DNA of 64,000 nt from a virus (lineage: Duplodnaviria > Caudoviricetes), in IMG/VR virus record IMGVR_UViG_2576861548_000003, positions 32,001-96,000 of that record. One strand, given 5' to 3'. Position 1 is the first letter of the stretch. The number at the start of each line of letters is the position of its first letter. Positions 5,211-52,748 of the stretch are shown piece after piece. The notes beneath the pieces are model-generated. The model ran no database searches and was not told the origin of the DNA. It saw nothing but the letters and a program-made list of their open reading frames with translations. A program made the position numbers and the translations under genes.

Positions 5211-5978
5211 ATGGAGGAAAACAAATTGACAAAACAAGAAAATGACACATTATCGATATTTGGTAAAGGAAAGACCATTTATCAGGTTGCGGGTAATGAC
5301 GTAGCATTATCATTTGATATTGTACGTAACTATTTAACGAAAGGTAGCGGGCAAGTATCCGATCAGGATATTGTACAGTTTATTAGTATTTGCAAATTTA
5401 ACCAGCTTAATCCATTCTTGAACGAAGCATTCCTTGTCAAGTTTGGACAACAACCGGCGCAGATGATTGTCAGTAAAGAGGCTTTTTTTAAACGAGCTGA
5501 CGCAAGTGAACAGTACGAAGGTTTCAAGGCTGGTGTCATACTTATCAGAGATAATCAAATTGTAGAGGTGGAAGGATGTTTCTATAATGAAAAAACAGAT
5601 GTTCTTGTTGGAGGATGGTGTGAAGTTTATCGTTCAGACCGTAAATTTCCTATTGTAGCGAAAGTGAATCTTTCCGAATACGACAAAAAGCAATCTATAT
5701 GGAATGAAAAGAAATCCACCATGATTTCCAAGATTGCTAAGGTTCAGGCATTACGTGAAGCTTTTCCTGCTCAACTTGGAGCAATGTATACACAAGAAGA
5801 ACAAGAGGTTAAATTTGCAGAATACGAGGATGTGACTGGGAAAGAATCTAAAGGTAATAAACTTGCGGAAATTGCTGCTAAGGCCGCAGGGGTGGAAGAA
5901 CAACCTAACCCGGAGCAATTAGAAACTCAATCTCAAAATAACGCGAATAATAAACCTGTTCAAAAAACACTGTTATGA
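5211..5978 (+). CDS. bet: Bet/RecT-family ssDNA annealing protein
   Basis: CKFNQLNPFLNEAFLVKF, GGWCEVYRSDR, MISKIAKVQALREAFP. Confidence 0.9.
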   Translation: MEENKLTKQENDTLSIFGKGKTIYQVAGNDVALSFDIVRNYLTKGSGQVSDQDIVQFISICKFNQLNPFLNEAFLVKFGQQPAQMIVSKEAFFKRADASEQYEGFKAGVILIRDNQIVEVEGCFYNEKTDVLVGGWCEVYRSDRKFPIVAKVNLSEYDKKQSIWNEKKSTMISKIAKVQALREAFPAQLGAMYTQEEQEVKFAEYEDVTGKESKGNKLAEIAAKAAGVEEQPNPEQLETQSQNNANNKPVQKTLL

Positions 5979-6907
5979 TGGAAAATGATGGTGAAATATG
6001 GAAAGATATAGTTGGATATGAGGGTAGATACCAAGTGTCCAACTATGGAAGAATTAAATCTCTTGATATTAACTTGCATAAACGTGATGGAAAGATAGAG
6101 TTTAGGAAAGGTAAAATTCTTAAAGCCAGTTTAAGCGCGTTTGGCTATCCTCAGTACTGCTTTAGTTCCAGTTTTGGTAAACGAAAGCTCATGAGGATAC
6201 ATAGAGTTGTAGCAGAAACTTTTATTCCTAATCCTGATAAAAAGCCATTTATTGATCATATAAATCGTATAAAGACAGATAATAATGTTAATAATTTGCG
6301 ATGGTGCACAGGCAAGGAGAATATGAATAACCCATTAACAAGGGAATGGTTGAAAAACTGTAGGCCAAGTTTCCACCATTCAGAAGAAGTTAAGAAAAAG
6401 ATAGGGTTATTAAACAAGGGACGCATATTTAAAGAATCTACAAGAGAAAAACTCCGTATTAGAGGATTTCCAGTAATGCAGTTTACTATAAGTGGTGATT
6501 TTATCATGGAGTATAAAAGTCCTTATTATGCTCAAAGTGAGACAGGGGCATTACGAACCCATATTGTAGCTTGTTGTAATGGAAAAAGGAAAACAGCTGG
6601 TGGGTATAGATGGGTCTATAAAAAAAATTATAAAGGGAAGGATCTACCTAAATTGGCAAATAAAAAGCGCATATACAAAACAGGTTATAAGCAAACAAAA
6701 CAGGCTATAATAAATATGCGTAAATCTAAAGAAAAATACCGTAAAGCGGTATTAGTCTTTTCATTAGACGGTTCGTTTCTGTCTGAATATCCTTCAATTA
6801 TTGAAGCAGGCAATGCAACAGGCACAAATTTCGGCTCAATATGTAATTGTTGTAGGGGTAGAATTGGACAATCAAATGGTTACAGATTTAAATATAAAGA
6901 TATATGA
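5975..6907 (+). CDS. NUMOD4-HNH homing endonuclease with NUMOD1-like repeats
   Basis: EIWKDIVGYEGRYQVSNYGRIKS; HRVVAETF..IDHINRIKTDNNVNNLRW; two CC.G.....GY.(W/F) repeats. Confidence 0.9.
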   Translation: MMENDGEIWKDIVGYEGRYQVSNYGRIKSLDINLHKRDGKIEFRKGKILKASLSAFGYPQYCFSSSFGKRKLMRIHRVVAETFIPNPDKKPFIDHINRIKTDNNVNNLRWCTGKENMNNPLTREWLKNCRPSFHHSEEVKKKIGLLNKGRIFKESTREKLRIRGFPVMQFTISGDFIMEYKSPYYAQSETGALRTHIVACCNGKRKTAGGYRWVYKKNYKGKDLPKLANKKRIYKTGYKQTKQAIINMRKSKEKYRKAVLVFSLDGSFLSEYPSIIEAGNATGTNFGSICNCCRGRIGQSNGYRFKYKDI

Positions 6908-10208: not shown

Positions 10209-11195
10209 ATGAAACGATTTGGAAATTTATACTATCGTATTTGTGACATTGATAACCTTTACCTTGCATATACCAAAGCAAGAAAAGGCAAGGGAAATAC
10301 TTATGGGGTCATTCAATTTGAGAAAGAATTGGATGACAACATAAATACCCTTCATAAGGAACTGTCAGAAGGTAAATACGTTACTTCTGAATATCAAACT
10401 TTTATCATACATGATCCTAAGGAACGTGAAATATACCGGCTCCCTTTCCGTGATCGTGTTGTTCATCATGCGATAATGAATATCCTCGAAGATATATGGA
10501 CTCCGATATTCATTTCACATACTTATTCATGTATTAAGGGCAGAGGTATCCATGGAGTAATGAAACATCTAAAGAAAGATTTGAAAGATATCCAAAATAC
10601 AAAATATTGCCTGAAAATGGATATTCGTAAATACTATCCGTCAATAGATCATTTGATACTTAAGAATATTGTCCGAAAGAAGGTTAAGGACAAACGTCTT
10701 CTTGAGTTACTCGACGGTATTATTGATTCTGCTCCGGGAATACCTATCGGTAATTATCTTTCTCAGTTCTTTGCAAACTTGTATCTATCTTACTTTGACC
10801 ACTGGCTTAAAGAGGAAAGACGTATAAAGTATTATTATAGATATGCTGATGATATGGTAATACTTTCATCAAACAAAGAAGAGCTTCACTCTCTGCTTGG
10901 AGATATAAAATCATATCTGCATAATAAGCTTCATTTAAATTTAAAAGACAATTATCAAATATTCCCGGTTGATAATAGAGGAATTGACTTTGTTGGCTAT
11001 GTTTTCTTTCACACTCATATTTTAATGCGGAAAAGTATCAAGAAAAACTTCTGTAGAAAAGTAGCAGTGTTGAACAAAAAGAAAACTACATCCTGCAACT
11101 GCAAGATAGCACTTTGTTCATGGATGGGATGGGCAAAACATTGTAATTCAAAGCACTTAATTAAAACTGTAATCAAAAATGAAAAGGTTTTCTGA
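10209..11195 (+). CDS. DGR reverse transcriptase
   Basis: LPFRDRVVHHA, GIPIGNYLSQFFANLYL (DGR-type SQ motif), YYRYADD; 328 aa with no maturase/endonuclease extension. Confidence 0.95.
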   Translation: MKRFGNLYYRICDIDNLYLAYTKARKGKGNTYGVIQFEKELDDNINTLHKELSEGKYVTSEYQTFIIHDPKEREIYRLPFRDRVVHHAIMNILEDIWTPIFISHTYSCIKGRGIHGVMKHLKKDLKDIQNTKYCLKMDIRKYYPSIDHLILKNIVRKKVKDKRLLELLDGIIDSAPGIPIGNYLSQFFANLYLSYFDHWLKEERRIKYYYRYADDMVILSSNKEELHSLLGDIKSYLHNKLHLNLKDNYQIFPVDNRGIDFVGYVFFHTHILMRKSIKKNFCRKVAVLNKKKTTSCNCKIALCSWMGWAKHCNSKHLIKTVIKNEKVF

Positions 11196-19698: not shown

Positions 19699-20451
19699 AT
19701 GCCGATAAGCGAAGTATGCAATATAGACCGAATGGATTTCTTAAAGAAATTCCCAGATAACTTCTTTGACTTGTTCATAGATGATCCACCATACGGAATT
19801 GGAGCGGATAATCCTTCGATCAAGCCCAATACTGTAAAACAAAGTAATGGTAATATACTGTATGTTAAACAATCCGTTTATCCGAAATCAGACTGGGATT
19901 CACGAGTTCCCCCTCCAGAATATTTCGATGAAGTAAAAAGGGTTAGCCGAAATCAGATAATATGGGGAGTAAACTACTTTAATTACGACTTTACTGGTGG
20001 ACGCATTGTTTGGGATAAGCTAAATGGTGATACTGACCAATACGATTGTGAAATAGCTTACTGCAGTATGAATGACAGAACCGACCTTATATATTGCATG
20101 TGGCGGGGAATGATTCAGGGAACCTATTGTGGAAAGGATTTATCTAAGGCAATTATCCAGCAAGGAAACAAAAAATTGAATGAAAAGCGGATTCATCCCT
20201 GCCAAAAGCCTGTGATTCTATATGGGTGGTTACTCAATCAATATGCCAACCCCGGTTATAAGATCGGTGATGCTCACATGGGTAGTCAAAGTAGCCGGAT
20301 TGCAGCTTACAAGCTAGGATTCGACTATTGGGGATGTGAAAAAGATAAGTTTCATTTCAAAGAAGGTAATTCTCGTTTCCGCTATGAATGCCACGGAGAA
20401 ATAAAAACAAATAAAGGGATTTTAGTGCAAACAAATCTATTTGACTTATAA
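19699..20451 (+). CDS. Orphan DNA N4-C/N6-A methyltransferase (beta-class order)
   Basis: DPPY motif IV, HPCQKP, DAHMGSQS motif-I variant. Confidence 0.9.
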   Translation: MPISEVCNIDRMDFLKKFPDNFFDLFIDDPPYGIGADNPSIKPNTVKQSNGNILYVKQSVYPKSDWDSRVPPPEYFDEVKRVSRNQIIWGVNYFNYDFTGGRIVWDKLNGDTDQYDCEIAYCSMNDRTDLIYCMWRGMIQGTYCGKDLSKAIIQQGNKKLNEKRIHPCQKPVILYGWLLNQYANPGYKIGDAHMGSQSSRIAAYKLGFDYWGCEKDKFHFKEGNSRFRYECHGEIKTNKGILVQTNLFDL

Positions 20452-30579: not shown

Positions 30580-33039
30580 TTGAATATGGTACAGTTGATA
30601 TTAGAAAATAGACTTATAGGTAATTCGGGCTGGATTGTTGAGTATTTCGATGTGCAAGGTTCAAAGTACATCAATACCGTAAAGATAAGAGGAGACAAGG
30701 ATTACCAAATAGGAGATATATTCAACGCAATAGAGTATGGACATGATGGACTAAGTAGCTACCAACGCAAACACGGCATTGAGTATGACGGAATAAGTTT
30801 CCAATCCTCCATTGAAAAAGCAGAGGTTGAAATACTCTTGAATTTTCATTTGATAGACGAACTCAAAAAACGCTTCAAACCATGTTTCGTTTACCAAGAA
30901 GAATGGATGAACGAAGATGACTACGATGAAGCTGTTCGTGATAAAGCAAAGGAAATTTATGTTGATATTATAACTAATCTTTCTGAGGAATTGCATAAGG
31001 ACTTTGAAGAGATAGATGAATCGGTGTCAGTCAATGAATACGATGATATTATATGTAGTTTTAGTAGTCAAATCATAAATTATACAGCATGAAAACGAAA
31101 GTAACTAAAGATGGTTTTATATGGCTTGTTGTACCAAGTGACGACGCAATGGAAATGTGGAAATCAAAGACAGCCGAATTGTATATACTCCACAATGATG
31201 ACAGCGAAACAATGGTTGAAACCGATTTACAAGTGCAACGTGCCACATTCAGCGGAGAGCAGATTGGCATCGAAGTAGGATTCATCAAAGACTTGCTTCC
31301 TGTTTGCCCCAAATGTGGCAAAAGGCTTGTTCCAAGTGACAATCCTGAATATGTTTGGCAGTGTTATGAATGCGATGAGGATTTTTATTCATTTGAAGTG
31401 TGTAATGGAGACCAAAACCAATAAAGCGATTTCACTACTCCAGTGCGGTGATTTTAAAGCCGCACTGACTATTTTCTCCACTTTTCGCATTGGATTTACC
31501 AAAGAAGAGCAAAGAACCTTGAAAATAGCAAGCGAAAGCCTTTCTGGTAATTCCTCGTTCTATCGTCAACTTGGAATTGATACCGACAAAGCGATAGAAA
31601 AAAGTAAGTCTATTATTACATCGAAGTACTTGAAAATGAAATAGTTAAACAAAGTTTAAGTTATGTATGTTTGTGGTTTAAACTATTGGTAATCAATATA
31701 TTATTTGTATCTTTACATATCAAAAATAACAAAATACGTAATCGCGGAGACGCTTACAAAATAATCAATGAGAGCAATGAAAAAGATAGAACAAATGACA
31801 TCCGAACTTAACCGAGTATTGCATTCTAACACCTACCAATTCGAGATTGACACCGAAGATTTTGTTTTCGGTTTCAAGGAAACAATAAGAACGAGGACTA
31901 AGGATTTGGCAATGGCTATTAAGCTTGAACAAAAGGTAACAAGGGACTGCGGACGTTTCCTGTCCGACACCGTTAGAATCGTATCTGTAAGAATTTACAA
32001 AAACGGTGATTTGAGAAAAGAAATTCATGCTGAAGAAATAACAGCATCATATAATGGATAAAATATAGAGCAATGAAAACATTGAAAAAATTAACAAGCA
32101 AAGAAAGCTTTGCCATCCTTAGAGAAATCGAAAGCAAGAAATGTCCTAATGGCGTTAAGTATTCAGAGTGGAGAGAGGAAAGAGATAGACTACAGACGGA
32201 AGCCATCAGAAATTTAGTTCCCGAAGTCGGGCTAGGTTGTACCGTATGTTACTATTCTGACAGGCGAGCAGCTACTGTAACCAAAGTTATTTCTCCATGC
32301 AAGATTGAGGTTACATTTAATCAAACGGAATGTATCGACTACTATGCTGGTGATTATAAGATTTTACCAGAACTTGAAGGTGGACCAAAGGTGTTCACTA
32401 AAAGGAGAAATGGCCGTTGGGTGGCAGATGGGCAAGCGTACAAGGACGGTGTTTTGCTTATGCTTCATTATCAAAGTCATTATATTGATCCACGTTTTTA
32501 GCATTAAAAGCAATGAAAGCAAATAAAATAATGTTCCTATACTATCCTTGTATAGTAATTGTATGTGAATCAATGGAAACCCCTAATTCCAAAGACCCGG
32601 AAACAAACGATCTGAGGGAATATGCTAGAATAGTTAGATTTTCATATGAAACAAAATTTTTCCCTTATTTTGAATTTATCCCTGCTGGTTCAATTGAATG
32701 GACTAAGCATGCAGATATGCTTAGCAAAGAACAAAGAGACAGCATAGAAAAACGTTCCCAACAATTGCGGGAAGAGGATAAAGAGCGGATTGATTATTTC
32801 AACAAACTAAAAGAAGCAAGTATAAAATCACATAACCAACATAATAATAAGCAATGAAAACAACTGTAAAAGTGTATTTAAGAGATGAACAAGGTAATGA
32901 AGACTACTTCATTACTCCTATTAACTTATCAGAGCAAGAAGCTCACAAGTACTATCTCGGTAACATCTTCAATATGGGGTGCGAAACAGATCACATGATG
33001 AAATGCTACAAAGTTGAGACAATAAAATCATCAAATTAG
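30580..33039 (+). other. Cluster of small hypothetical genes (30580, 31089, ~31404, ~31777, 32073, 32513, 32854)
   Basis: Co-oriented small ORFs, several with (AG)AGCAATG starts. Confidence 0.6.
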
Positions 33040-33053
33040 ATAAATTTATGACT

Positions 33054-33090
33054 AAAAGTGATTGTTTTTACTTCATATTTTGTATTTTTA
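33054..33090 (+). promoter_or_regulatory. Palindromic promoter motif, copy 2 (degenerate)
   Basis: AAAAGTGA-N11-TCATATTT-N2-TATTTTTA. Confidence 0.55.
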
Positions 33091-33108
33091 CACCATAAAA
33101 TTAAAGCA

Positions 33109-33519
33109 ATGAGGATTTACACAAGTTATTTCGGGAATTACAGAAAACTAGCAGCTGCAAACGTAAAAATGATATGTGTTGCGCTAGGGAAGCCAAGATT
33201 TTATAATGCACCTCAGATCATAGAGGTGGCACCAAGAAGATACATGTTGGATGATAAATGGACTTATGAAGAGTACACGAATATGTATTTGAATGATGTC
33301 CTTGCAAAAGTCAATCCGCAAGAATTGATTCAAACTATCCAGCGACTCAGTGAAGACAAAGACGTCGCTCTCTGCTGTTACGAAAAACCGGGTGATTTCT
33401 GCCATCGTCATATTTTGGCAAAATGGCTTACCGAAAAGACTGGCATTGAAATAACAGAGTTCGGAGTAGTTGAAAGGAAAGAACCTAAATACGAACAAGC
33501 AAGTTTGTTTGAGATATGA
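33109..33519 (+). CDS. DUF488-like protein
   Basis: Likely start ATG 33109 MRIYTSYF; ALCCYEKPGDFCHRHILAKWL. Confidence 0.8.
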   Translation: MRIYTSYFGNYRKLAAANVKMICVALGKPRFYNAPQIIEVAPRRYMLDDKWTYEEYTNMYLNDVLAKVNPQELIQTIQRLSEDKDVALCCYEKPGDFCHRHILAKWLTEKTGIEITEFGVVERKEPKYEQASLFEI

Positions 33520-33977: not shown

Positions 33978-34050
33978 GGGAATTTAGCAAAGATGGTCTA
34001 TGCGTCGGACTAAAAATCCGAAGAACAAGGTTCGAATCCTTGAGTTCCCA
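33978..34050 (+). tRNA. tRNA-Phe-like with AAA anticodon
   Basis: GGGAATT/AGTTCCC-A acceptor, TCGGA-CTAAAAA-TCCGA anticodon arm, CAAGG-TTCGAAT-CCTTG T-arm. Confidence 0.8.
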
Positions 34051-34275
34051 CAGTCTTGTATCAATGAACGCACCACTCTATCCGAATTGAAGACGGGCGT
34101 CGGGTCTGTCTGAAGATAGGAAAGCCGATAGAGTAGCAGATAGAAAGGGGAAGGGTAAATCCGAAATAAGTCCCAGAGAGTATCTATCAAGGTGGATTCC
34201 CACAAAATCATGTGGCAGTTGACGGTGACGACATGGCGGTTCATAATGTTGGCAGCTTGGAATAGACAAGCATTT

Positions 34276-34345
34276 GCGGAAATAGCTCATCGGTAGAGCG
34301 TTGGCATTCCAGCCAAAGAGTGGGGTTCGATTCCCTGTTTCCGCT
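34276..34345 (+). tRNA. Atypical tRNA-Gly(TCC)-like
   Basis: GCGGAAA/TTTCCGC-T acceptor; GCTC/GAGC D-stem; TTGGC-ATTCCA-GCCAA 6-nt loop; TGGGG-TTCGATT-CCCTG. Confidence 0.8.
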
Positions 34346-34464
34346 CTAATGCCGTTAAACTCGGCTCGTTGATTGAGGTTGTGTAAAGTAAGCGACAAGG
34401 TTCGATTCCTTGCATTTAGTTGGTACTGCAAACAATCTGACAGCGTGGAAAGACACGCAAATTT

Positions 34465-34620
34465 GGTAGTATGGCGGAATTGGTAGACGCTGACAACTCT
34501 TAGTAGACTTGGTTACGATGTTATGAAAACTGGGCATCATTGTAAAACGAACCAATCCAGTGTTACACGGAAGATGTAGAAGATTGCCAAGCATTGCAGG
34601 TTCGAGTTCTGCTGCTACCT
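34465..34620 (+). ncRNA. tRNA-like RNA with ~100-nt structured segment in place of anticodon/variable arms
   Basis: GGTAGTA/TGCTACC-T acceptor, Leu-like D-arm GGCGGAATTGGTAGACGC, T-arm GCAGG-TTCGAGT-TCTGC. Confidence 0.65.
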
Positions 34621-34844: not shown

Positions 34845-35744
34845 ATGAACGATAAAGGACTAATAAGAGCATGTGAAAACTCCGGCTGTGGTTGGAAGTG
34901 TTGTTCGTTCGGATCAGACGGACATATTGTAATTTTGCCCCATGAATTTGACGGGCATGAAAAAGAAATCTCCCATTTACAGATTATAGACGATGATTAC
35001 TTTGGCGGTAAAAAGGTAAAATGTATCGCTAAAGATTGCAAATCATGTGACAATGGTTACAAGCCTATTATGTGTCGTACTTATCCTTTGTGGGTAAAAT
35101 CAGTGAAAAAAAGTTTTGTGTTTCGTAGTGGTAAGTGTCCGCTAAATAATGAACAACTTGCTAAACATAAGGAGTTTGTATTAGACATTTTCAACAATTA
35201 CAGAAAAGTGCTGTTGCCTGAAAATGATATAGACACATTCCTTTCAAAAGCATGGATTGACCGTTACGAACCGCTGTTCCCAATAAAGAAGGAAAGCACA
35301 GAGTACAAGATGCAGGTCAAATCTTTATCTATGTCTGATATATCAGATATTGAAAAGATGGAGCAGACGCTTCTTCGCAATCCAGATATGTGTTTCGCAT
35401 CAGAGCCGGAAGACATAGCCAAATGCTTGGAATCAGGTTGCAGTTATGGGTTATTCGTAAATGACAAACTGGCTGCCTATTCTCTTGCATACTTCACAGA
35501 ATACGGTACTGCCTATGTGGATAAATGCTTTGTTCATTCTGATTACAGAGGGAATGGATTCCAATACGTACTTCTCAATTCTAATATTGCTAAATTAATA
35601 TCTAATGGGGTCCAGGAAATCTATGCCATGGTCTCACCGAAAAATGAAGCAAGTATCAAGAGTTTCATTAATGCAGGATTTTCTTTTAAACGAGATAGCA
35701 AATACAAAGAGATTGAACGTTTAATCTTAAAGTGGGAACTATGA
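34845..35744 (+). CDS. YkgJ-like Cys-cluster domain fused to GNAT acetyltransferase
   Basis: CENSGCGWKCC..C..C..C..KPIMCRTYP; GNAT motif A VHSDYRGNGFQ and NEASIKSF..AGF. Confidence 0.8.
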   Translation: MNDKGLIRACENSGCGWKCCSFGSDGHIVILPHEFDGHEKEISHLQIIDDDYFGGKKVKCIAKDCKSCDNGYKPIMCRTYPLWVKSVKKSFVFRSGKCPLNNEQLAKHKEFVLDIFNNYRKVLLPENDIDTFLSKAWIDRYEPLFPIKKESTEYKMQVKSLSMSDISDIEKMEQTLLRNPDMCFASEPEDIAKCLESGCSYGLFVNDKLAAYSLAYFTEYGTAYVDKCFVHSDYRGNGFQYVLLNSNIAKLISNGVQEIYAMVSPKNEASIKSFINAGFSFKRDSKYKEIERLILKWEL

Positions 35745-36619
35745 AAGTTGTTGTCTATACCAAGAATATAATAGAGAACATTGAAAAGGCGCAAAGCTTT
35801 ATTAATGTTCCTATCTCGTTAATGTTCAAAGATTTCTACGAGGATATTTATGGACATATCGCGGATAAAATAAACAATAAGATTTTTGGGCTTCATTTAA
35901 AAGATAGTATATGTTATTCTATTGGCAAAGCGACAAAAGATAATAGTGGTGCCGTGGTGACATCATTTACTGATGTTTGGCAATATCTTAATATCAATGG
36001 TATCGCATGTCAAGGAATACATAATTTCTACATTCCGATTAATGCTTGTGATGATAGAGAAGGTTTAAGTTGTTATGAAGCAAGTAAGTTGGCCAATGAA
36101 ATAAGAATGATTTCAAGCTCCCATATATATGGCTTGATTACTTCTGGATGTCTGAATGAAAACCATCCCTCGGAAAAAGAATTGTACCGTATTTGGAAAA
36201 GCCTACGCGATAATATTGAATCTATTAGTTTGGGTGGTAGCTTTTGGCTTGGACAAGAAACTAAGATCCCAGAATTCACAAGCGATGTTCGTATTGGTGA
36301 ATATATGCTGTTTGGCACAATCCCATATTGTGATTATGAGGTGAGAAAAGGTCTTAATGGCATAGAAATCGAAACAAGGGTTATAGGTATTTACCCAGAA
36401 CGTAATCAATTGATTTTGGATTGTGGCTATTCAATGGTAGACTTAGATAAGTGTCAAATTAGTGATTGTACCAATTTGAAGTTTGTAGATAGTTCTAGTG
36501 AATACTCAATTATGGAGTGTGACCATGTCTCAGATTATTGCATTGGTGATGTGGTTACGTTTGTTCCCAATTATAAATCATTAGTCAAGTTGAGATATGC
36601 AGAACATGAATATAGATAA
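35741..36619 (+). CDS. PLP-dependent racemase, ornithine racemase/YhfX-like (fold III)
   Basis: LMFKD (candidate PLP Lys), DDREGL, ISLGGS, VRIGEYMLFG, LILDCGYSMVD, IGDVVTF..Y. Confidence 0.78.
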   Translation: MKVVVYTKNIIENIEKAQSFINVPISLMFKDFYEDIYGHIADKINNKIFGLHLKDSICYSIGKATKDNSGAVVTSFTDVWQYLNINGIACQGIHNFYIPINACDDREGLSCYEASKLANEIRMISSSHIYGLITSGCLNENHPSEKELYRIWKSLRDNIESISLGGSFWLGQETKIPEFTSDVRIGEYMLFGTIPYCDYEVRKGLNGIEIETRVIGIYPERNQLILDCGYSMVDLDKCQISDCTNLKFVDSSSEYSIMECDHVSDYCIGDVVTFVPNYKSLVKLRYAEHEYR

Positions 36620-38684
36620 ACCTTGGATTGATTATATATCCAATCGTACATTTGGCATGGAACTGGAGTTTGCCGATGGTGACAAACAACGCATCCCGCT
36701 TCCATCCGGTTACAAGTGGACGGACAACAAGTTGACCATGATGAACAATTCGGATGGTTCGGCAGTTACGCATCACGGCCAGTTCGGTGGTGAGATAAAC
36801 ACCCGTCCATACCATTACTGCGCTGAAGACCTTCAGGAGTTGAAAGACTTCATTCATACCATGAAAGATGCGGGAAGCTATCTTATGTGGAATGAAGGCT
36901 TTGATGCGCATCTGTACATCAAGGATATGGACCTGGATGTTATCAAGCGTATGTTTGTCCTCTCTTATTATACTGCATATCCAATCAAACGGATATTTGA
37001 TATTGCGGAGTGGTGGGAAACAAAATATCTCGTACCAAGCCCTCCTTGGGATGTAGTGAAGCGTGTATTGGAAGCAGATACTATTGAGAATCTACTGAAA
37101 GTTTTTAGCAATGGTTCAGATCGAGGACACATCCGGTACTGGCTTAATTTATGTTCTATTGAAAAGATAGGAACGGCAGAATTTAGGATCTTCAATAGCT
37201 CCTGGGATTTCGATAAAATACTGGAAACAATCAAATTCATGTATTCGTTTGTGGAGTACGCCTACCTGCATGAAGATATGGAAGAGTATAAGCAACTCAC
37301 CACAATTGATAGGTGCCTTGAAGTGTTCAATATAGACTATTCTAAGGTTCCCCAAAGACATAAACCGTTACTTTGGGCAGCAGAACACTCGGATAATGTT
37401 ACAATAGTAGGCTCCATGTTTAAGAAATCCAACCGTATGCTTTCCTTTATCAAGAAAGAGGCTTCCAAATTCGATGTAGCCCATGTGGTAAACTCGTATT
37501 ATATGGATATAGAGCAAATACTTACCAACCGTGAGATTAAGGTGTATACAAAGGAGTATTTTATCTACATGATGTATAAGGCAATCAAGGGAGAGATAAA
37601 AGAACTGCGCTTTAATGAAGAATATGAGTTTCTAAGTATTAAATCTGAAAATCCTGCTGAAATTATTGCCACTATTCACCTTTTTAATGCCATCAAAAAG
37701 CATAAGAATTCACAGGATATTTATCACAAATCGCTTTATGACGATTTTATGGCAAAGTTAGAGCATTACCATAAGAAGTATACGGAACGTTATCAAAAGC
37801 TAGTAGATAACCTTAAAAGTAAGTCTATTGAAGTGCTTTATTGTGCTGATATATCGGATGCGATTCTTAACTGTAAAGAGGATGATATACTAATCTATCA
37901 GAATGAATTTCATTCCGGAATGAAAGCTACGAGTAACGCATTGCAACGTTTCTTATTGGATGATTTTGGATCTCAAGAAAGAACTAAAACGAAATATGCA
38001 GAAATAGATGAAGAACAAGTTAATTACATGGCTCTCTCGCAGCATGGATTTATGGGCAGAAGAGAGGTATTCAAAGACCAACGCACATATATTTGGTCTA
38101 ATGTGGTAGAAAGCGGAGATAGTAGCTTTAACAAGCGAACTATCGTTCCTTTAAAATATAAACGGCTTCCGGATGATTATATGCTTACGGATAAAAGCAA
38201 ACTCCGGTTTGTACGTGCTTCTATGGCAGAGATTGATTATCTGCGTATGATTTACTTGAAAAAGGGTATTCTCCTCGGTTCTGCACCATTCTGTTACTTA
38301 TGGTTCTTGGATGATTATGTGTTTGGGGCTTGTATGTTTGATTTCCTGAAGGTAAGCAAATACGGCATGGATGCAGTTTGGATGAAGTCGGATTTCGTGA
38401 TAGACCATCCATTGCCCAAATTGAGTAGATTGCTAATTATGGGTGTACTTTCGTCAGAGTTCAAAGATGAATTGGACATAAGATATAAACATGAATGTGG
38501 AGTGATTGCTACTTCTGTATTTACCGATAAACCGGTAAGTATGAAGTATCGGGGAGTGTTTAAACTGCATGAACGCTGTGTTGGTAAACTCCATTACATA
38601 CAAGATGCAGGCATTCGTGGCAACTTAGATGATATTTTAAAAGATTTTGTGAAAAAATACGGTGATGAGCCGAGAAAGGAATAA
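36597..38684 (+). CDS. Amidoligase (COOH-NH2 ligase) domain fused to a putative DNA-modification region (MTase-like plus Mom/GNAT-like)
   Basis: N-term RTFGMELEF, DGS, GEINT, RYWLNL, GTAEFRIF; C-term SDFVI..KLSRLL..TSVFTDKPVSMKYRG. Confidence 0.72.
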   Translation: MQNMNIDKPWIDYISNRTFGMELEFADGDKQRIPLPSGYKWTDNKLTMMNNSDGSAVTHHGQFGGEINTRPYHYCAEDLQELKDFIHTMKDAGSYLMWNEGFDAHLYIKDMDLDVIKRMFVLSYYTAYPIKRIFDIAEWWETKYLVPSPPWDVVKRVLEADTIENLLKVFSNGSDRGHIRYWLNLCSIEKIGTAEFRIFNSSWDFDKILETIKFMYSFVEYAYLHEDMEEYKQLTTIDRCLEVFNIDYSKVPQRHKPLLWAAEHSDNVTIVGSMFKKSNRMLSFIKKEASKFDVAHVVNSYYMDIEQILTNREIKVYTKEYFIYMMYKAIKGEIKELRFNEEYEFLSIKSENPAEIIATIHLFNAIKKHKNSQDIYHKSLYDDFMAKLEHYHKKYTERYQKLVDNLKSKSIEVLYCADISDAILNCKEDDILIYQNEFHSGMKATSNALQRFLLDDFGSQERTKTKYAEIDEEQVNYMALSQHGFMGRREVFKDQRTYIWSNVVESGDSSFNKRTIVPLKYKRLPDDYMLTDKSKLRFVRASMAEIDYLRMIYLKKGILLGSAPFCYLWFLDDYVFGACMFDFLKVSKYGMDAVWMKSDFVIDHPLPKLSRLLIMGVLSSEFKDELDIRYKHECGVIATSVFTDKPVSMKYRGVFKLHERCVGKLHYIQDAGIRGNLDDILKDFVKKYGDEPRKE

Positions 38685-38687
38685 TAT

Positions 38688-39389
38688 ATGGGAAAATTCA
38701 AGATAGCGGAAGTGCAATTATCTGACATTAAACTGGTCAAGAAAAATGCGCATTTCATGCAGCAGGACACGTTTAATGCCTTAGTGAATAACATTCGTAG
38801 AGACGGTCAATTATCGTCTGTACCATTCTGTGTAAAGCATTCGGATGGCTCTTATACGGTGGTGAGTGGTAATCACCGAACACAAGCGGCAAAAATGGCT
38901 GGGCTTACTTCCATCCATGTTATGTACATAGATGAAGAGGAGACTACAAACGATTGGTTGCTGGCAACACAATTGTCACATAACAGTATAGTTGGGCAAG
39001 ACGATGCGGAGATTTTGAAGCAATTGCTTGATGAAATAACAGATGTCGCACTGAAAGAATATGCGCATATCAGTAATGAAGTTCTGGAAAGTGTGAAGGA
39101 CATTAACTATACGGTTGAAATGCCGAATAATGAAATCGTCCCGGTAACTCTTATGTTTGTTGATACGCAGAAAACCGCATTCGATAAGTTGATGGAAACA
39201 TTGGATTGCTATTCTGAAAAAGAACTTGGCAATCTTACTTTGGTAGATATGGATACAATGCACCGGTTGAATGAAGTATCGGCTAAAGTACAAGCCAAGT
39301 ATAAAATCAAGGCCCAGGCTTTGAGTATTTGCAAAATGTTGGAAATTGTAAATAATGTATTGGAGGGTAATGCGGATGGAGAAAGATAG
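38688..39389 (+). CDS. ParB/Srx-like protein
   Basis: NAHFM..LVNNIRRDG..VVSGNHRTQAAKMAG; directly upstream of terminase. Confidence 0.88.
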   Translation: MGKFKIAEVQLSDIKLVKKNAHFMQQDTFNALVNNIRRDGQLSSVPFCVKHSDGSYTVVSGNHRTQAAKMAGLTSIHVMYIDEEETTNDWLLATQLSHNSIVGQDDAEILKQLLDEITDVALKEYAHISNEVLESVKDINYTVEMPNNEIVPVTLMFVDTQKTAFDKLMETLDCYSEKELGNLTLVDMDTMHRLNEVSAKVQAKYKIKAQALSICKMLEIVNNVLEGNADGER

Positions 39390-39747
39390 AAAATACAGGT
39401 TGAATACAAGGCAAAAGAAAACATTGTTTCTAAAAGCCCTTGATGCAAGACTTCTTAATGTGACGAAAGCATGCGAGGCCGCAAGTATATGTCGTTCTCT
39501 TGCTTATAAATGGAGAGAAAATGACCCCGAGTTTAAAGCGAAATGGGAAGAGGTTGAAGAAGCGTTCAAAGACAAAATAGAAACGTGTATGTTCACAAAA
39601 GCTATTACGGAACAGGACAATACTATGCTTATTTGGCTAAGTAAAACTAAGCTTCGTGATAGAGGCTACGTAGAAAAGATTGAACAGGATTTGAACGTGA
39701 ACCCGTTTGAAAAACTTATGCAGGAATTGCCAGATGATGAAGAATGA
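39376..39747 (+). CDS. terS: Terminase small subunit
   Basis: NVTKACEAASICRSLAYKW HTH, KLRDRGYVEK; precedes TerL; start uncertain (39355 or 39376). Confidence 0.8.
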   Translation: MEKDRKYRLNTRQKKTLFLKALDARLLNVTKACEAASICRSLAYKWRENDPEFKAKWEEVEEAFKDKIETCMFTKAITEQDNTMLIWLSKTKLRDRGYVEKIEQDLNVNPFEKLMQELPDDEE

Positions 39748-41258
39748 CAATAGCAGATGAAAAATCTTTGCGGAAAATCAAATCATGGACAGAAGACTGG
39801 AATAGGTTTGTGCGTGATGCTCTTAAAGCTCGTTTGGATAAGGAGCAACAGGATATTATTTCATCTGTGCAGTACAATCCTATGACAGCTGTTGCATCGG
39901 GAACAGCTCGTGGTAAGGACTTCGTGGCGGCCTGTGCATCTTTGTGTTTCATGTATCTTACTCCTCGTTGGAAAGATGGGAAGTTGACTAAAAACACTAA
40001 AATTGCTATGACAGCGCCTACCGCTCGTCAAGTACAAAATATTATGATTCCGGAAATCTCACGTTTATACAGGAATGCAGGTTTCCTTCCGGGAAGATTG
40101 TTGTCGTCAGGTATAAAGACTGATTACGAAGAGTGGTTCCTGACGGGGTTTAAGGCGGGTGATGATAACACCGAAGCATGGTCCGGTTTTCACGCTGTAA
40201 ATACGATGTTTGTTGTTACCGAAGCTTCTGGTATTTCTGAATCAACGTATAACGCCATTGAAGGTAACTTACAAGGTAATTCTCGTTTGCTTATCGTGTT
40301 TAATCCGAATGTTACTACCGGTTATGCCGCACGCGCTATGAAGTCGGAGCGTTTTGCAAAATTTCGTTTGGATTCTCTTAATGCGGAGAATGTGGTATCT
40401 AAGAAAGCTGTAATTCCAGGACAGGTAAACTACGAGTGGGTTAAGGATAAAGTTGAGAATTGGTGTTCTCTGTTACAGAAAGCAGATTTCAATGAGGGAG
40501 AGGGAGATTTTACATGGGAAGGTAAGTTATATCGTCCAAATGATCTTTTCCGTGTCAAGGTCAGAGGTATGTTCCCTAAAGTTTCCGAGGATGTACTTAT
40601 ACCTTATGAATGGATAGAAATAGCAAACAGAAATTGGCAGGAATTACAGGCAAGCGGCTTCATTCCATCCAAATCGTGCAAGTTAGGTGTTGACGTGGCT
40701 GGTATGGGACGCGACAATAGTGTACTTTGTCCTCGATATGGTAACTATGTGGCGCAATTTGAAGTACATCAATCCGCTGGTCGAGCAGACCATATGCATG
40801 TAGTCGGTATGGCGATACCCTATTTGAAGAAGAGGGGAGCTAAAGCATTTATTGATACGATAGGAGAGGGGGCAGGTGTTTATTCCCGCTTGTTAGAAGA
40901 AGAATTTACAAATGCTTTTTCATGTAAATATTCAGAAGGTGCGGATGGATTGCATGATATTACCGGAGAATATGAATTTGCCAATATGCGCGCATATTTG
41001 TATTGGGCTTTGCGCGACTGGCTCAATCCTAAAAATGGATTTGGTGCAGCTTTACCTCCATGTGACCAGTTAATGGAAGAAGCGACTGAAACTAAATGGA
41101 AGTTTCTCAGTAATGGAAAGATTATCATTGAGGCTAAAGAAGACATAAAAAAACGTATCAAGCGTTCTCCTGACTATATGGATGCATTAGCGAATACATT
41201 TTATCCTAGGGATTACAGCTTTATTAGCGATGAAGAGCTGCTCAAAGATTTTTTGTAG
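39744..41258 (+). CDS. terL: Terminase large subunit
   Basis: ASGTARGKD Walker A, VVTEASG Walker B variant, LGVDVAGMGRD, RSPDYMDAL. Confidence 0.93.
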   Translation: MTIADEKSLRKIKSWTEDWNRFVRDALKARLDKEQQDIISSVQYNPMTAVASGTARGKDFVAACASLCFMYLTPRWKDGKLTKNTKIAMTAPTARQVQNIMIPEISRLYRNAGFLPGRLLSSGIKTDYEEWFLTGFKAGDDNTEAWSGFHAVNTMFVVTEASGISESTYNAIEGNLQGNSRLLIVFNPNVTTGYAARAMKSERFAKFRLDSLNAENVVSKKAVIPGQVNYEWVKDKVENWCSLLQKADFNEGEGDFTWEGKLYRPNDLFRVKVRGMFPKVSEDVLIPYEWIEIANRNWQELQASGFIPSKSCKLGVDVAGMGRDNSVLCPRYGNYVAQFEVHQSAGRADHMHVVGMAIPYLKKRGAKAFIDTIGEGAGVYSRLLEEEFTNAFSCKYSEGADGLHDITGEYEFANMRAYLYWALRDWLNPKNGFGAALPPCDQLMEEATETKWKFLSNGKIIIEAKEDIKKRIKRSPDYMDALANTFYPRDYSFISDEELLKDFL

Positions 41259-41286: not shown

Positions 41287-41354
41287 GAAAACACTTCTTT
41301 TGTGTTTTCATTGCTCTTATGTGCACTGGCTTGTGAAAGTCGGTGCCATTTTTG
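41287..41354 (+). ncRNA. Putative trans-acting sRNA antisense to phage start-codon regions
   Basis: -7 element TACCTTTG 41274-41281; hairpin-seed-terminator layout; 19-nt complement to 4751..4769. Confidence 0.55.
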
Positions 41355-52603: not shown

Positions 52604-52674
52604 GCGGAGATGGTGTAATGGTTGCATATATATCATCCAGATATCAGGTTACGGTTCAAGTCCGTATCTCCGCT
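52604..52674 (+). tRNA. Second atypical tRNA-Gly(TCC)-like gene, in tail operon
   Basis: GCGGAGA/TCTCCGC-T acceptor; TACGG-TTCAAGT-CCGTA T-arm; loop CATCCAG with A at position 33. Confidence 0.72.
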
Positions 52675-52748
52675 CTGTTTTTTGAGAATCTGATTTGTTG
52701 TTCATAATTTAATGTCGGTTGTCTGTGAAGATAGCCGATAAAAAATAA

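Follow-up and report, generated by a model that had tools for sequence, protein, structure and literature searches.

A packaging-linked phage operon with its own tRNA-Gly-like gene and a putative role in decorating DNA with amino acids

Several systems are known in which amino acids are attached to DNA or transferred from tRNA outside translation. Mom of bacteriophage Mu (Pfam PF25680; PDB 8bv8) is a phage GNAT-fold enzyme that acts after replication and transfers glycine from Gly-tRNAGly to N6 of deoxyadenosine in double-stranded DNA (Silva et al. 2026, PMC13219725). Mom is a 241-aa single-domain dimer with a helix-turn-helix (HTH)-like insert for DNA binding, and phage Mu is not known to carry a tRNA of its own. 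In the CmoA/CmoX/CmoY pathway for 5-carboxymethylcytosine-glycine, an ATP-dependent amide ligase builds an amino-acid amide on a DNA base, and ParBc-domain genes are frequent neighbours (PMC12783734). CmoY is an asparagine-synthetase-type, AMP-forming ligase, its handle is installed by a C5-cytosine methyltransferase homologue using Cx-SAM, and neither a tRNA nor a GNAT is involved. Thymidine hypermodification clusters (5-HMUDK and aGPT-Pplase2 with PLP, rSAM, FAD and acetyltransferase enzymes; PMC8989533) tailor an amino acid appended to DNA in a combinatorial manner. This tailoring includes a PLP enzyme and a GNAT acetyltransferase that caps an unmasked amine, and amidoligases are noted there as uncharacterized neighbours. 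That route requires 5-hmdU made before replication. FemXAB peptidyl transferases also use a GNAT fold and aminoacyl-tRNA outside translation, and are served by dedicated tRNA-Gly species that are poor in decoding. Their acceptor is a peptidoglycan precursor, and they have two GNAT domains and no DNA-type domain. FemX is also mentioned in the Mom study (PMC13219725).

A further group consists of phage proteins with DAM-like-phage (PF22555/PF22556) and GNAT-phage-like (PF22559) domains and a ParB-like neighbour (phrog_7858 and phrog_7405), such as gp28/gp29 of Gordonia phage Sting. The locus described here, from a gut provirus, carries the same two domains and the same ParB partner, but in a form fused to an amidoligase. 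The locus lies in a 64,000-nt window, positions 32,001 to 96,000 of IMG/VR record IMGVR_UViG_2576861548_000003, and all coordinates below refer to this window. A literature search found no experimental work on either the fused or the unfused form.

Gene order and the predicted domains of the fusion protein

A preliminary description from sequence alone had reported four overlapping or abutting genes between a tRNA cluster and terS, coding for a Cys-cluster/GNAT protein, an ornithine-racemase-like PLP enzyme, a 695-aa amidoligase fusion and a ParB-like protein. This gene arrangement was confirmed. The four plus-strand ORFs are gene 1 (34845-35744, 299 aa), gene 2 (35732-36619, 295 aa), gene 3 (36597-38684, 695 aa) and gene 4 (38688-39389, 233 aa), followed by terS (39355-39747; phrog_4044) and terL (39744-41258; phrog_2). 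Successive genes overlap by 13, 23, 35 and 4 nt or, between genes 3 and 4, are 3 nt apart. terS and terL both overlap the preceding gene and therefore lie in the same transcription unit; the first terminator-like hairpin appears only after terL, at 41323-41346. Two tRNA genes are located upstream, at 33978-34051 and 34276-34346. The genes are not chance ORFs, as the same gene order is kept in loci whose fusion protein is only 30-48% identical.

Gene 3 codes for three predicted domains, and the AlphaFold2 (AF2) model of the protein has a pLDDT of 92.1. The first domain (36597-37346) is an Amidoligase_2 carboxylate-amine ligase of the glutamine synthetase/gamma-glutamylcysteine ligase (GCL) fold (PF12224, 32.4 bits, cut-off 22). 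By VIA structure comparison, residues 1-251 match 1tt4_A (Z 10.9, rmsd 3.4, 205 aligned), glutamine synthetases (Z 10.4-10.9) and GCL 2gwc (Z 10.4). In 13 diverse members, the R, T, G, E and E of RTFGxExE, the G and E of GGEINTRP, H, Y and D, S, G and R, and the T, E and R of TxEFR are invariant. The domain is intact by profile, fold and conserved residues, although ATP- and metal-binding roles of these residues are inferred from the superfamily.

The second domain (37416-38108, residues 274-504) is shaped like a Dam methyltransferase, with matches to E. coli Dam (2ore_D; Z 11.4, rmsd 5.0, 181 aligned), T4 Dam (Z 10.2) and DpnM (Z 10.0). However, the DPPY motif and the Gly-rich SAM loop are absent. 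The motif positions, which were assigned by eye, read VNSYYMDIEQ, VYTKEY and YQNEF, with VNSYYMDIEQ in place of the Gly-rich loop and YQNEF in place of DPPY both here and in the fused relatives. The unfused proteins retain GCSGNF, SNDVSLYS and F-x-PTY-x-GGYE motifs that are lost here. Alignment of the family to E. coli Dam with hhalign was not significant (probability 0.3%). The score for PF22555 was 22.4 bits, below the cut-off of 27, while phrog_7858 covered residues 267-690 (E 2e-36) and relatives carry PF22556 or PF22555 in precomputed tables.

The third domain (38184-38615) is the most conserved part of the protein and matches PF22559 GNAT-phage-like at 90.8 bits (cut-off 27; E 1.1e-25), or at 94.4 bits in a six-frame search of the record. 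G577, S648, K650, Y651, R652, G653 and Y667 are invariant in 65 sequences, in which the SDF and KPVSMKYRG motifs are invariant or nearly so; KPVSMKYRG is shared with the unfused proteins. Mom was the top VIA match to residues 530-673 (8bv8_A; Z 11.3, rmsd 3.2, 137 aligned), but is tied, within 1 Z, with other GNATs (Z up to 10.7). In a Foldseek search, Mom ranked eighth (E 1.3e-3), behind Naa60. The domain is not a member of the Mom family by sequence. A Pfam scan of gene 3 listed no PF25680, and hhalign of a 25-sequence family alignment against Mu Mom gave a probability of 0.07%, whereas Mu Mom itself scores 253 bits on PF25680. PF25680 was also not matched in the whole record, although the control for that search was uninformative. 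The invariant residues S648, K650, Y651, R652 and D599 are only candidate counterparts of the essential Mom residues R111, S124, D149 and R151. The preliminary description had proposed by eye that the C-terminal ~430 aa of gene 3 resemble ParB-linked phage methyltransferase-like and Mom-like proteins. Fold comparison had been named beforehand as a test of this proposal, and the proposal held.

The fold does not choose between a tRNA donor and a CoA donor. One alternative, which is possible but less likely, is that the module modifies DNA without tRNA. In this view, the GNAT domain would use an acyl-CoA, for example one carrying a free carboxylate, or would act on a base other than adenine. The amidoligase would then couple an amino acid to that handle, as CmoY does on 5-carboxymethylcytosine, and the neighbouring tRNA-Gly genes would be ordinary or decaying phage tRNAs. 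The tie with ordinary CoA-dependent GNATs and the Cmo precedent, with its ParBc neighbours, are consistent with this view, and the motif after beta5 (PVSMKYRGVF) looks like the classical GNAT acetyl-CoA motif A..lY.k.GF.

Gene 4 codes for a protein of the ParB/Srx fold (NTP-binding type; PF02195 ParB_N, 26.7 bits, cut-off 26.3; phrog_7405, E 2.8e-57), in which NTP binding itself is inferred. Profile searches matched Noc (7.7e-6), ParB and sulfiredoxin, and the SG[NH]HR motif (Box II GxxR) is invariant in 24 orthologues.

Conserved partners, tRNA-Gly genes and the inferred DNA modification

The core of the module, a Dam-like/GNAT protein with a ParB-like protein and often a DUF488 protein, recurs in hundreds of viral contigs. 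The 99%-identical cluster alone has 872 member sequences, and 473 IMG/VR stretches encode relatives. ParB is present in 25 of 25 fused clusters and is adjacent in 78 of 80 unfused loci, and terS is present in 24 of 25 fused clusters. Relatives are fused to a REase_MTES_1575/DUF559 nuclease-like domain, and one ORF joins the GNAT-like part to ParB. In Gordonia phage Sting, the homologue is annotated as a DNA methyltransferase and sits beside a ParB-like gene. These features, with the Dam fold of the scaffold and the run of the operon into terS/terL, point to DNA as the target.

The position immediately upstream of terS, and the many roles of ParB-fold proteins as NTP switches (PMC12704722), leave room for an explanation without covalent DNA chemistry. 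The ParB-like protein and the Dam-like fusion could act in pac-site recognition, partition or regulation of packaging, or could modify a protein such as terminase. This is considered very unlikely, because catalytic-type residues are strictly conserved in both the ligase and the GNAT domain, small-molecule enzymes turn over combinatorially around the core, and the unfused module in phage Sting is not beside a terminase.

Amino-acid-handling partners accompany only the amidoligase-fused form, in 25 of 25 fused clusters against 0 of 80 unfused loci. These partners include the racemase-family PLP enzyme, GNATs, opine dehydrogenase, a Ddl-like ligase and an AlaDH-like enzyme. A PLP enzyme and a Ddl-like ligase co-occur in two cases (L091 and L097), and a classical GNAT is fused directly to the N-terminus of a relative. 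The loci are not phylogenetically independent.

A racemase, a Ddl-like ligase and a tRNA-Gly-using GNAT are also the logic of peptidoglycan synthesis. The enzymes could therefore make a cell-wall, small-molecule or peptide product, for example by a Fem-like, tRNA-dependent change to peptidoglycan precursors using D-amino acids, with the Dam-like domain as only a structural relic. The alanine-racemase-family enzyme, the Ddl-like ATP-grasp ligases, the opine dehydrogenases and the tRNA-Gly link are consistent with this view. Fem transferases are GNAT-fold enzymes that use Gly-tRNA, and phage amidoligases have been predicted to modify the cell surface (PMC11318856, citing Iyer 2009). Such a product, which the preliminary description had named as its alternative, appears unlikely. 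The minimal conserved unit is the Dam-fold/GNAT protein with ParB and none of the amino-acid enzymes, there are nuclease-domain and ParB fusions, and the operon is coupled to terS/terL. No membrane or export signals were noticed, though without a dedicated search.

The tRNA gene at 34276-34346 (+) is tRNA-Gly-like (ARAGORN; Rfam tRNA model, 53 bits) and has a 6-nt anticodon loop (ATTCCA). It keeps G1-C72, C2-G71, G3-C70 and U73, and its T stem has two G-U pairs. GlyRS identity positions are kept in all 17 module-linked copies that were aligned. Of 221 tRNAs in 157 fused loci, 152 are Gly or Gly-like, and 11 of the 22 clusters with at least 3 kb of upstream sequence carry one within 3 kb. In the separately fetched unfused set, only 14 of 80 loci have any tRNA, and 9 of those 14 are tRNA-Gly. 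All 9 are upstream on the gene's strand, and three lie 21, 28 and 55 nt from the match. Among unique Gly-like sequences, 28 of 55 have a 6-nt loop or lack U33, against 6 of 28 for other isotypes. Defective anticodon loops with retained GlyRS identity elements point to selection for charging rather than decoding, which, together with the Gly tRNAs of the unfused set, argues against the tRNA-independent alternative. On the other hand, 66 of 80 unfused loci and about half of the fused clusters have no nearby tRNA-Gly. Within the fused lineage the tRNA could be inherited synteny, because terL is closely related among many of those loci, and tRNA-Gly(UCC) is a common phage tRNA.

The explanation considered best, although only about as likely as not, is a late, packaging-coupled module that covalently hypermodifies the phage's own DNA. 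What sequence and structure prediction establish is the joining in one protein of an intact amide ligase, a catalytically degenerate Dam-fold domain and a highly conserved GNAT domain, its constant association with a ParB-fold protein and usual association with a DUF488 protein, the linkage to tRNA-Gly genes that are often unfit for decoding, and the restriction of amino-acid-handling enzymes to the amidoligase-bearing form. The mechanism, including the use of Gly-tRNAGly, the target base, the direction of the amide, the order of steps and whether racemization occurs at all, is inferred, in the absence of any observed adduct or modified base. The Dam-like domain, helped by the ParB-like protein, would bind DNA and flip a base, most likely adenine because the scaffold is Dam-like. 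The GNAT domain would transfer glycine from Gly-tRNAGly onto the base, as Mom does, and the donor may be the phage's own tRNA at 34276-34346, charged by the host GlyRS. The amidoligase would then use ATP to make an amide between this adduct and an amino acid, which the PLP enzyme would supply or epimerize (D-form); the CmoX/CmoY system is a precedent for an ATP-dependent amide ligase that acts on a DNA base. The gene 1 GNAT would acetylate the remaining free amine, whereas in other phages this cap would be replaced by opine-type reductive alkylation (opine dehydrogenase or an AlaDH-family enzyme) or by a further Ddl-like ligation. The product would shield packaged DNA from host nucleases. A pre-replicative pyrimidine route, as in the thymidine clusters, is not indicated, as no PF00303 match (thymidylate-synthase-like gene) was found in the 109,908-base record.

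The interpretation in the preliminary description, that a base is aminoacylated, extended with a racemized (D-)amino acid and acetylated, is partly supported. Its logic fits the present findings, including the tRNA-Gly link, which it had not used. Compared with Mom, a Dam-fold domain and a separate ParB-fold protein take the place of the HTH-like insert, and an amide ligase, of the glutamine-synthetase-like Amidoligase_2 type rather than the CmoY type, and tailoring enzymes are added. A broader reading, which remains doubtful, is that phages of several unrelated lineages keep private, non-decoding tRNA-Gly genes to feed a GNAT enzyme that starts a short chain on adenine in DNA. In this phage the chain would be extended by the ATP-dependent ligase with a D-amino acid from the PLP enzyme and N-acetylated, to give a peptide-like hypermodification built by tRNA-dependent and ATP-dependent amide synthesis, and different phages would swap the capping chemistry (acetyl, opine-type alkyl or a further D-amino acid).

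If the DNA modification reading holds, Mom-type tRNA-dependent DNA modification is not a one-off of phage Mu, but one branch of a much larger and more elaborate toolkit that is abundant in gut phages. It would give a function to PF22555, PF22556 and PF22559, for which none was found in print, as well as to phage Amidoligase_2 genes and to phage tRNAs with broken anticodon loops. It would also add new enzymes that write amino-acid or peptide groups on DNA, which are of interest for restriction evasion, phage therapy host range and DNA labelling. The combinatorial partner sets predict a family of related but distinct adducts.

The putative tailoring enzymes and the DUF488 protein

Gene 2 (35732-36619) codes, as judged from sequence, for a fold-type III PLP enzyme of the alanine racemase family, for which racemase is the likeliest, though inferred, activity. 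It matches PF14031 (24.6 bits, cut-off 22), and all 30 of 30 Atlas feature hits are Ala_racemase_N clusters (top score 0.94), although PF01168 itself was not reported by hmmscan. K33, the putative PLP lysine (in SLMFKDF), R109-E110-G111, C140, S166/G168/G169/S170 and R187 are invariant in 12 orthologues, and a profile search matched 3llx, 'amino acid aldolase or racemase' (E 0.036). The more specific assignment as an ornithine racemase is not supported at family level. NF040742 gave only 26.4 bits against a cut-off of 480, covering only the C-terminal 62 residues, and only membership of the alanine racemase fold family is supported.

Gene 1 codes for a Cys-rich N-terminal domain (about 34845-35294), with 9 Cys in its first 98 residues, fused to a classical GNAT N-acetyltransferase (about 35322-35741; PF00583, 31.5 bits, cut-off 20.7), the proposed amine-capping enzyme. 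In the AF2 model the GNAT part has a pLDDT of about 90, and its top Foldseek hits are PaiA (5.2e-9), Naa50 (8.8e-9) and RimI; it thus resembles N-alpha-acetyltransferases. For residues 1-150, the pLDDT is 33-65 and the fold is not resolved. A Pfam scan of this part gave no hit at E up to 0.1, and the CxxCxxCC/YkgJ-type metal-binding family (PF03692) appeared at Atlas rank 8 (score 0.86), with the family on 18% of cluster members. In relatives, the two halves of gene 1 are separate ORFs, or only one is present.

At the 5' edge of the module, a conserved companion gene (33058-33519, +) codes for a 153-aa DUF488-N3a protein, a match to PF22751 (40.9 bits, cut-off 27) and PF04343. A homologue is present in 23 of 25 fused clusters and in 42 of 80 unfused loci.

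Gene organization and predicted domain composition

The region holds four plus-strand genes at 34845-35744 (gene 1), 35732-36619 (gene 2), 36597-38684 (gene 3) and 38688-39389 (gene 4), followed by terS (39355-39747) and terL (39744-41258). The preliminary description of four overlapping or abutting genes between the tRNA genes and terS is thus confirmed. Neighbouring genes overlap by 13, 23, 35 and 4 nt, or are 3 nt apart, and the first terminator-like hairpin comes after terL, at 41323-41346; the six genes therefore read as one late unit. A scan for sigma-70 promoters was not above the shuffled sequences (29 found against a mean of 23.8) and was not used. Two tRNA genes lie just upstream of the module. 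The window covers bases 32001-96000 of a 109,908-base record that is classed as a provirus.

Gene 1 encodes a protein with 9 cysteines in its first 98 residues and a classical GNAT domain (PF00583). In the AF2 model only the GNAT half is confident, and its best Foldseek matches, which concern that half only, are polyamine, N-alpha-peptide and amino-acid N-acetyltransferases, namely PaiA (5.2e-9), Naa50 (8.8e-9) and RimI. The model is of low confidence in residues 1-150, and for this Cys-rich half PF03692 is only a weak lead. Gene 2 encodes a short fold-type III PLP enzyme, by family matches. PF14031 is above its cut-off, all 30 Atlas hits are Ala_racemase_N clusters, and K33 and a phosphate-loop-like SxGGS are invariant in 12 orthologues. 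The preliminary description had likened it to ornithine racemase, but by the standard of NCBIfam it is not one (26.4 bits against a cut-off of 480).

Gene 3 was modelled with a 65-sequence alignment (pLDDT 92.1, pTM 0.77), and the model has three domains. Residues 1-250 align to the YbdK-type ligase (1tt4), glutamine synthetases and glutamate-cysteine ligase (Z 10.4-10.9), and this ligase domain keeps the invariant acidic, His and Arg pattern of its superfamily. Residues 274-504 align to E. coli Dam, T4 Dam and DpnM (Z 10.0-11.4). This Dam-like domain has no DPPY and no Gly-rich loop, and reads YQNEF and VNSYYMDIEQ where unfused relatives read F-x-PTY and GCSGNF. Residues 530-673 align to GNATs. 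Phage Mu Mom (8bv8_A) is first at Z 11.3 (rmsd 3.2, 137 aligned), but the next GNATs reach Z 10.7, so this is a tie. Because the fold does not discriminate, an acyl-CoA donor rather than a tRNA donor for this domain remains quite possible. The GNAT domain is the most conserved part of the protein, with G577, S648, K650, Y651, R652, G653 and Y667 invariant in 65 sequences. A purely architectural role of the module in packaging does not fit the conserved catalytic residues.

Gene 4 encodes a ParB/Srx-fold protein with an invariant SG[NH]HR motif. Searches of the proteins of genes 1, 2 and 3 against PDB sequences with phmmer gave nothing significant. Membership of the Mom family was rejected by sequence comparison, and a relationship of gene 3 to Dam was not significant by sequence. 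A search of the record with the Mom profile PF25680 found nothing, but it is uninformative because its control gave no match either.

Distribution and gene neighbourhoods

A word-indexed search found 82 clusters of relatives at 90% identity, and the 99%-identical cluster holds 872 member sequences. An exhaustive search found 480 representatives at 50% identity with E up to 1e-3, of which 41 had E up to 1e-30. In IMG/VR, 473 of 482 pattern matches encode relatives. Many of the hits are proteins of 430-460 aa that lack the ligase domain, and these are carried by Gordonia and Mycobacterium phages. In Gordonia phage Sting, the gene is annotated as a DNA methyltransferase and is followed by a 'ParB-like nuclease domain' gene. 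Other architectures include a classical GNAT fused in front of the ligase (relative P0101), a C-terminal REase_MTES_1575/DUF559 domain (P0169) and an HNH insert (P0150). In P0230, one ORF joins the GNAT-like part to ParB, although this is weak evidence because it is a single cluster on a 4.5-kb contig.

Loci with a full-length fusion (over 600 aa) were grouped by 80% single linkage. Of 157 loci, 4 without such a fusion were left out, and the remaining 153 formed 25 clusters. ParB was present in 25 of 25 clusters, terS in 24 of 25 and DUF488 in 23 of 25. The DUF488-N3a gene of the window lies at 33058-33519 and has no PDB relative by sequence. The other partners were variable: the PLP enzyme in 12 clusters, GNATs of two types in 8 and 5 clusters, the Cys-rich domain in 6, an opine dehydrogenase (PF02317) in 6, a Ddl-like ATP-grasp ligase (PF07478; sub-threshold for the NCBIfam Ddl models) in 9 and an AlaDH/PNT-family enzyme in 4. 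Two further clusters, represented by loci L086 and L087, carry only a divergent 236-aa PLP-like form. Every cluster has at least one such partner. An alignment showed that the gene 1 hits in the IMG/VR loci L054, L063 and L065 are the GNAT half rather than the Cys-rich half. In L091 and L097, also IMG/VR loci, a racemase-family PLP enzyme lies upstream of the fusion and a Ddl-like ATP-grasp ligase lies downstream of ParB, a pairing that is typical of D-amino-acid use.

In 80 loci of the unfused family, ParB is present in 78 and DUF488 in 42, but none of the ligase, PLP, Cys-GNAT, opine DH, Ddl-like or AlaDH-like queries hit any of them (0 of 80). The amino-acid enzymes therefore belong with the ligase domain, not with the core. 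A cell-wall or small-molecule product would fit the set of racemase, Ddl-like ligase and tRNA-Gly, but it fails to explain the Dam fold, the ParB partner, the nuclease fusions and the partner-free core.

Linkage to tRNA-Gly genes

The use of Gly-tRNAGly by Mom (PMC13219725) led to a test of the tRNA link. In the fused loci, 152 of 221 tRNAs in 157 loci are Gly or Gly-like. By cluster, 11 of the 22 with enough upstream sequence have one within 3 kb on the same strand; 3 of the 25 clusters had under 3 kb upstream and were left out. The count becomes 12 of 22 if an ARAGORN tRNA-Gly call in locus L123, rejected by the acceptor-end filter, is included. In the separately fetched and environmentally diverse unfused set, only 14 of 80 loci have any tRNA, and 9 of those 14 are tRNA-Gly. 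This is 8 distinct sequences among 13. Loci L216 and L217 of this set carry the same tRNA sequence. All 9 are upstream on the gene's strand, at 21, 28, 55, 294 and 801 nt and 3.6-4.3 kb from the match. These counts are not phylogenetically corrected, and within the fused lineage much of the signal may be shared ancestry.

The 17 aligned copies all keep G1, C2, G3 and the U73 end, and keep C35-C36, while position 34 varies among T, A and C. Of 55 unique Gly-like sequences, 22 have a 6-nt anticodon loop and 6 lack U33. In comparison, 6 of 28 unique tRNAs of other isotypes are odd. The window's copy at 34276 has the loop ATTCCA and two G-U pairs in the T stem. A second tRNA-Gly(TCC)-like gene, at 52604-52675 inside the tail region, has A instead of U at position 33 and an AT-only anticodon stem with a mismatch, and may be a second non-decoding glycine carrier. 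The gene at 33978-34051 was called as tRNA-Phe with anticodon AAA, whereas locus L002, whose fusion protein is 100% identical, has GAA. Two tRNA-like pieces that ARAGORN and Rfam did not call lie at 34393-34415 and 34469-34620. One is a lone T-arm-like hairpin (GGTTCGATTCC), and the other has a Leu-type D-arm and a T-arm and acceptor end, separated by about 100 nt.

Inferred mechanism, known systems and other phage genes

Mom is a GNAT that transfers glycine from Gly-tRNAGly to N6 of dA in dsDNA, after which the adduct rearranges on the base (PMC13219725). CmoY is an ATP-dependent ligase that amidates 5-carboxymethylcytosine in DNA with glycine, and ParBc genes are common neighbours there (PMC12783734). 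Thymidine hypermodification clusters tailor appended amino acids with PLP enzymes and an acetyltransferase, and amidoligases are listed as uncharacterized neighbours (PMC8989533). ParB-fold proteins bind CTP, ATP or GTP, and in phages they are often fused to methyltransferases (PMC12704722). In literature searches on phage amidoligases (also as COOH-NH2 ligases or Amidoligase_2) with ParB, on DNA hypermodification, aGPT-Pplase and Mom, and on DUF488, no paper described this architecture or its chemistry, although the founding paper on amidoligases (Iyer et al., 2009; PMC3268129) and Iyer et al. (2013), both outside these searches, may discuss such fusions. COOH-NH2 ligases with ParB in bacteriophages returned no paper, and the three Pfam domains returned only phage genome papers citing PF12224; these searches did not extend to supplementary data, where the similarity network and homologue lists of the Mom paper and the neighbourhood tables of the CmoX and thymidine papers could bear on novelty. 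A search for nanopore DNA runs holding 34845-41258, in which modified bases might appear as systematic miscalls, listed none.

In the proposed mechanism, the unfused core of a Dam-fold domain, a GNAT domain and ParB should make the primary adduct. The Dam-like domain, which has lost its methyltransferase motifs, is read as the part that would bind DNA and flip the base in place of the HTH-like insert of Mom, which makes adenine the likeliest target. The GNAT domain would transfer glycine from Gly-tRNAGly, and the ligase domain would then form an amide with ATP. Every variable partner is taken to act on a primary amine or an alpha-amino acid, by N-acetylation, reductive alkylation with a keto acid, racemization or D-amino-acid ligation. 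The simplest common denominator is therefore an adduct that carries a free amine, which is extended and then capped. In this window, that would mean a PLP-supplied (probably D-) amino acid and an acetyl cap. While the genes, their predicted domains and their neighbourhoods rest on sequence and structure prediction, all of these activities are inferred, and either direction of the amide, other orders of the steps, and a free or a DNA-bound substrate of the PLP enzyme remain possible. The preliminary description had likened the C-terminal ~430 aa of gene 3 to ParB-linked methyltransferase-like and Mom-like phage proteins, and this structural guess is borne out. Its interpretation, in which a base is aminoacylated, extended with a racemized amino acid and acetylated, is only partly supported; the pathway is reasonable but hypothetical.

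The record has no thymidylate-synthase-like gene, the only gene of the 5-hmdU route that was sought, which argues against a route through 5-hydroxymethyl pyrimidines. A separate N6_N4 DNA methyltransferase (PF01555, E 2.4e-10) is encoded at 19699-20451, and the phage therefore also has an ordinary methylase. A reverse transcriptase (RVT_1, E 4.9e-17) at 10209-11195 in the early region could belong to a diversity-generating or retron-like element. At 5211-6907, a RecT recombinase is followed by an HNH/NUMOD homing-endonuclease-like gene, and a related NUMOD/HNH module is fused in front of an 83%-identical ParB in the relative P0229.
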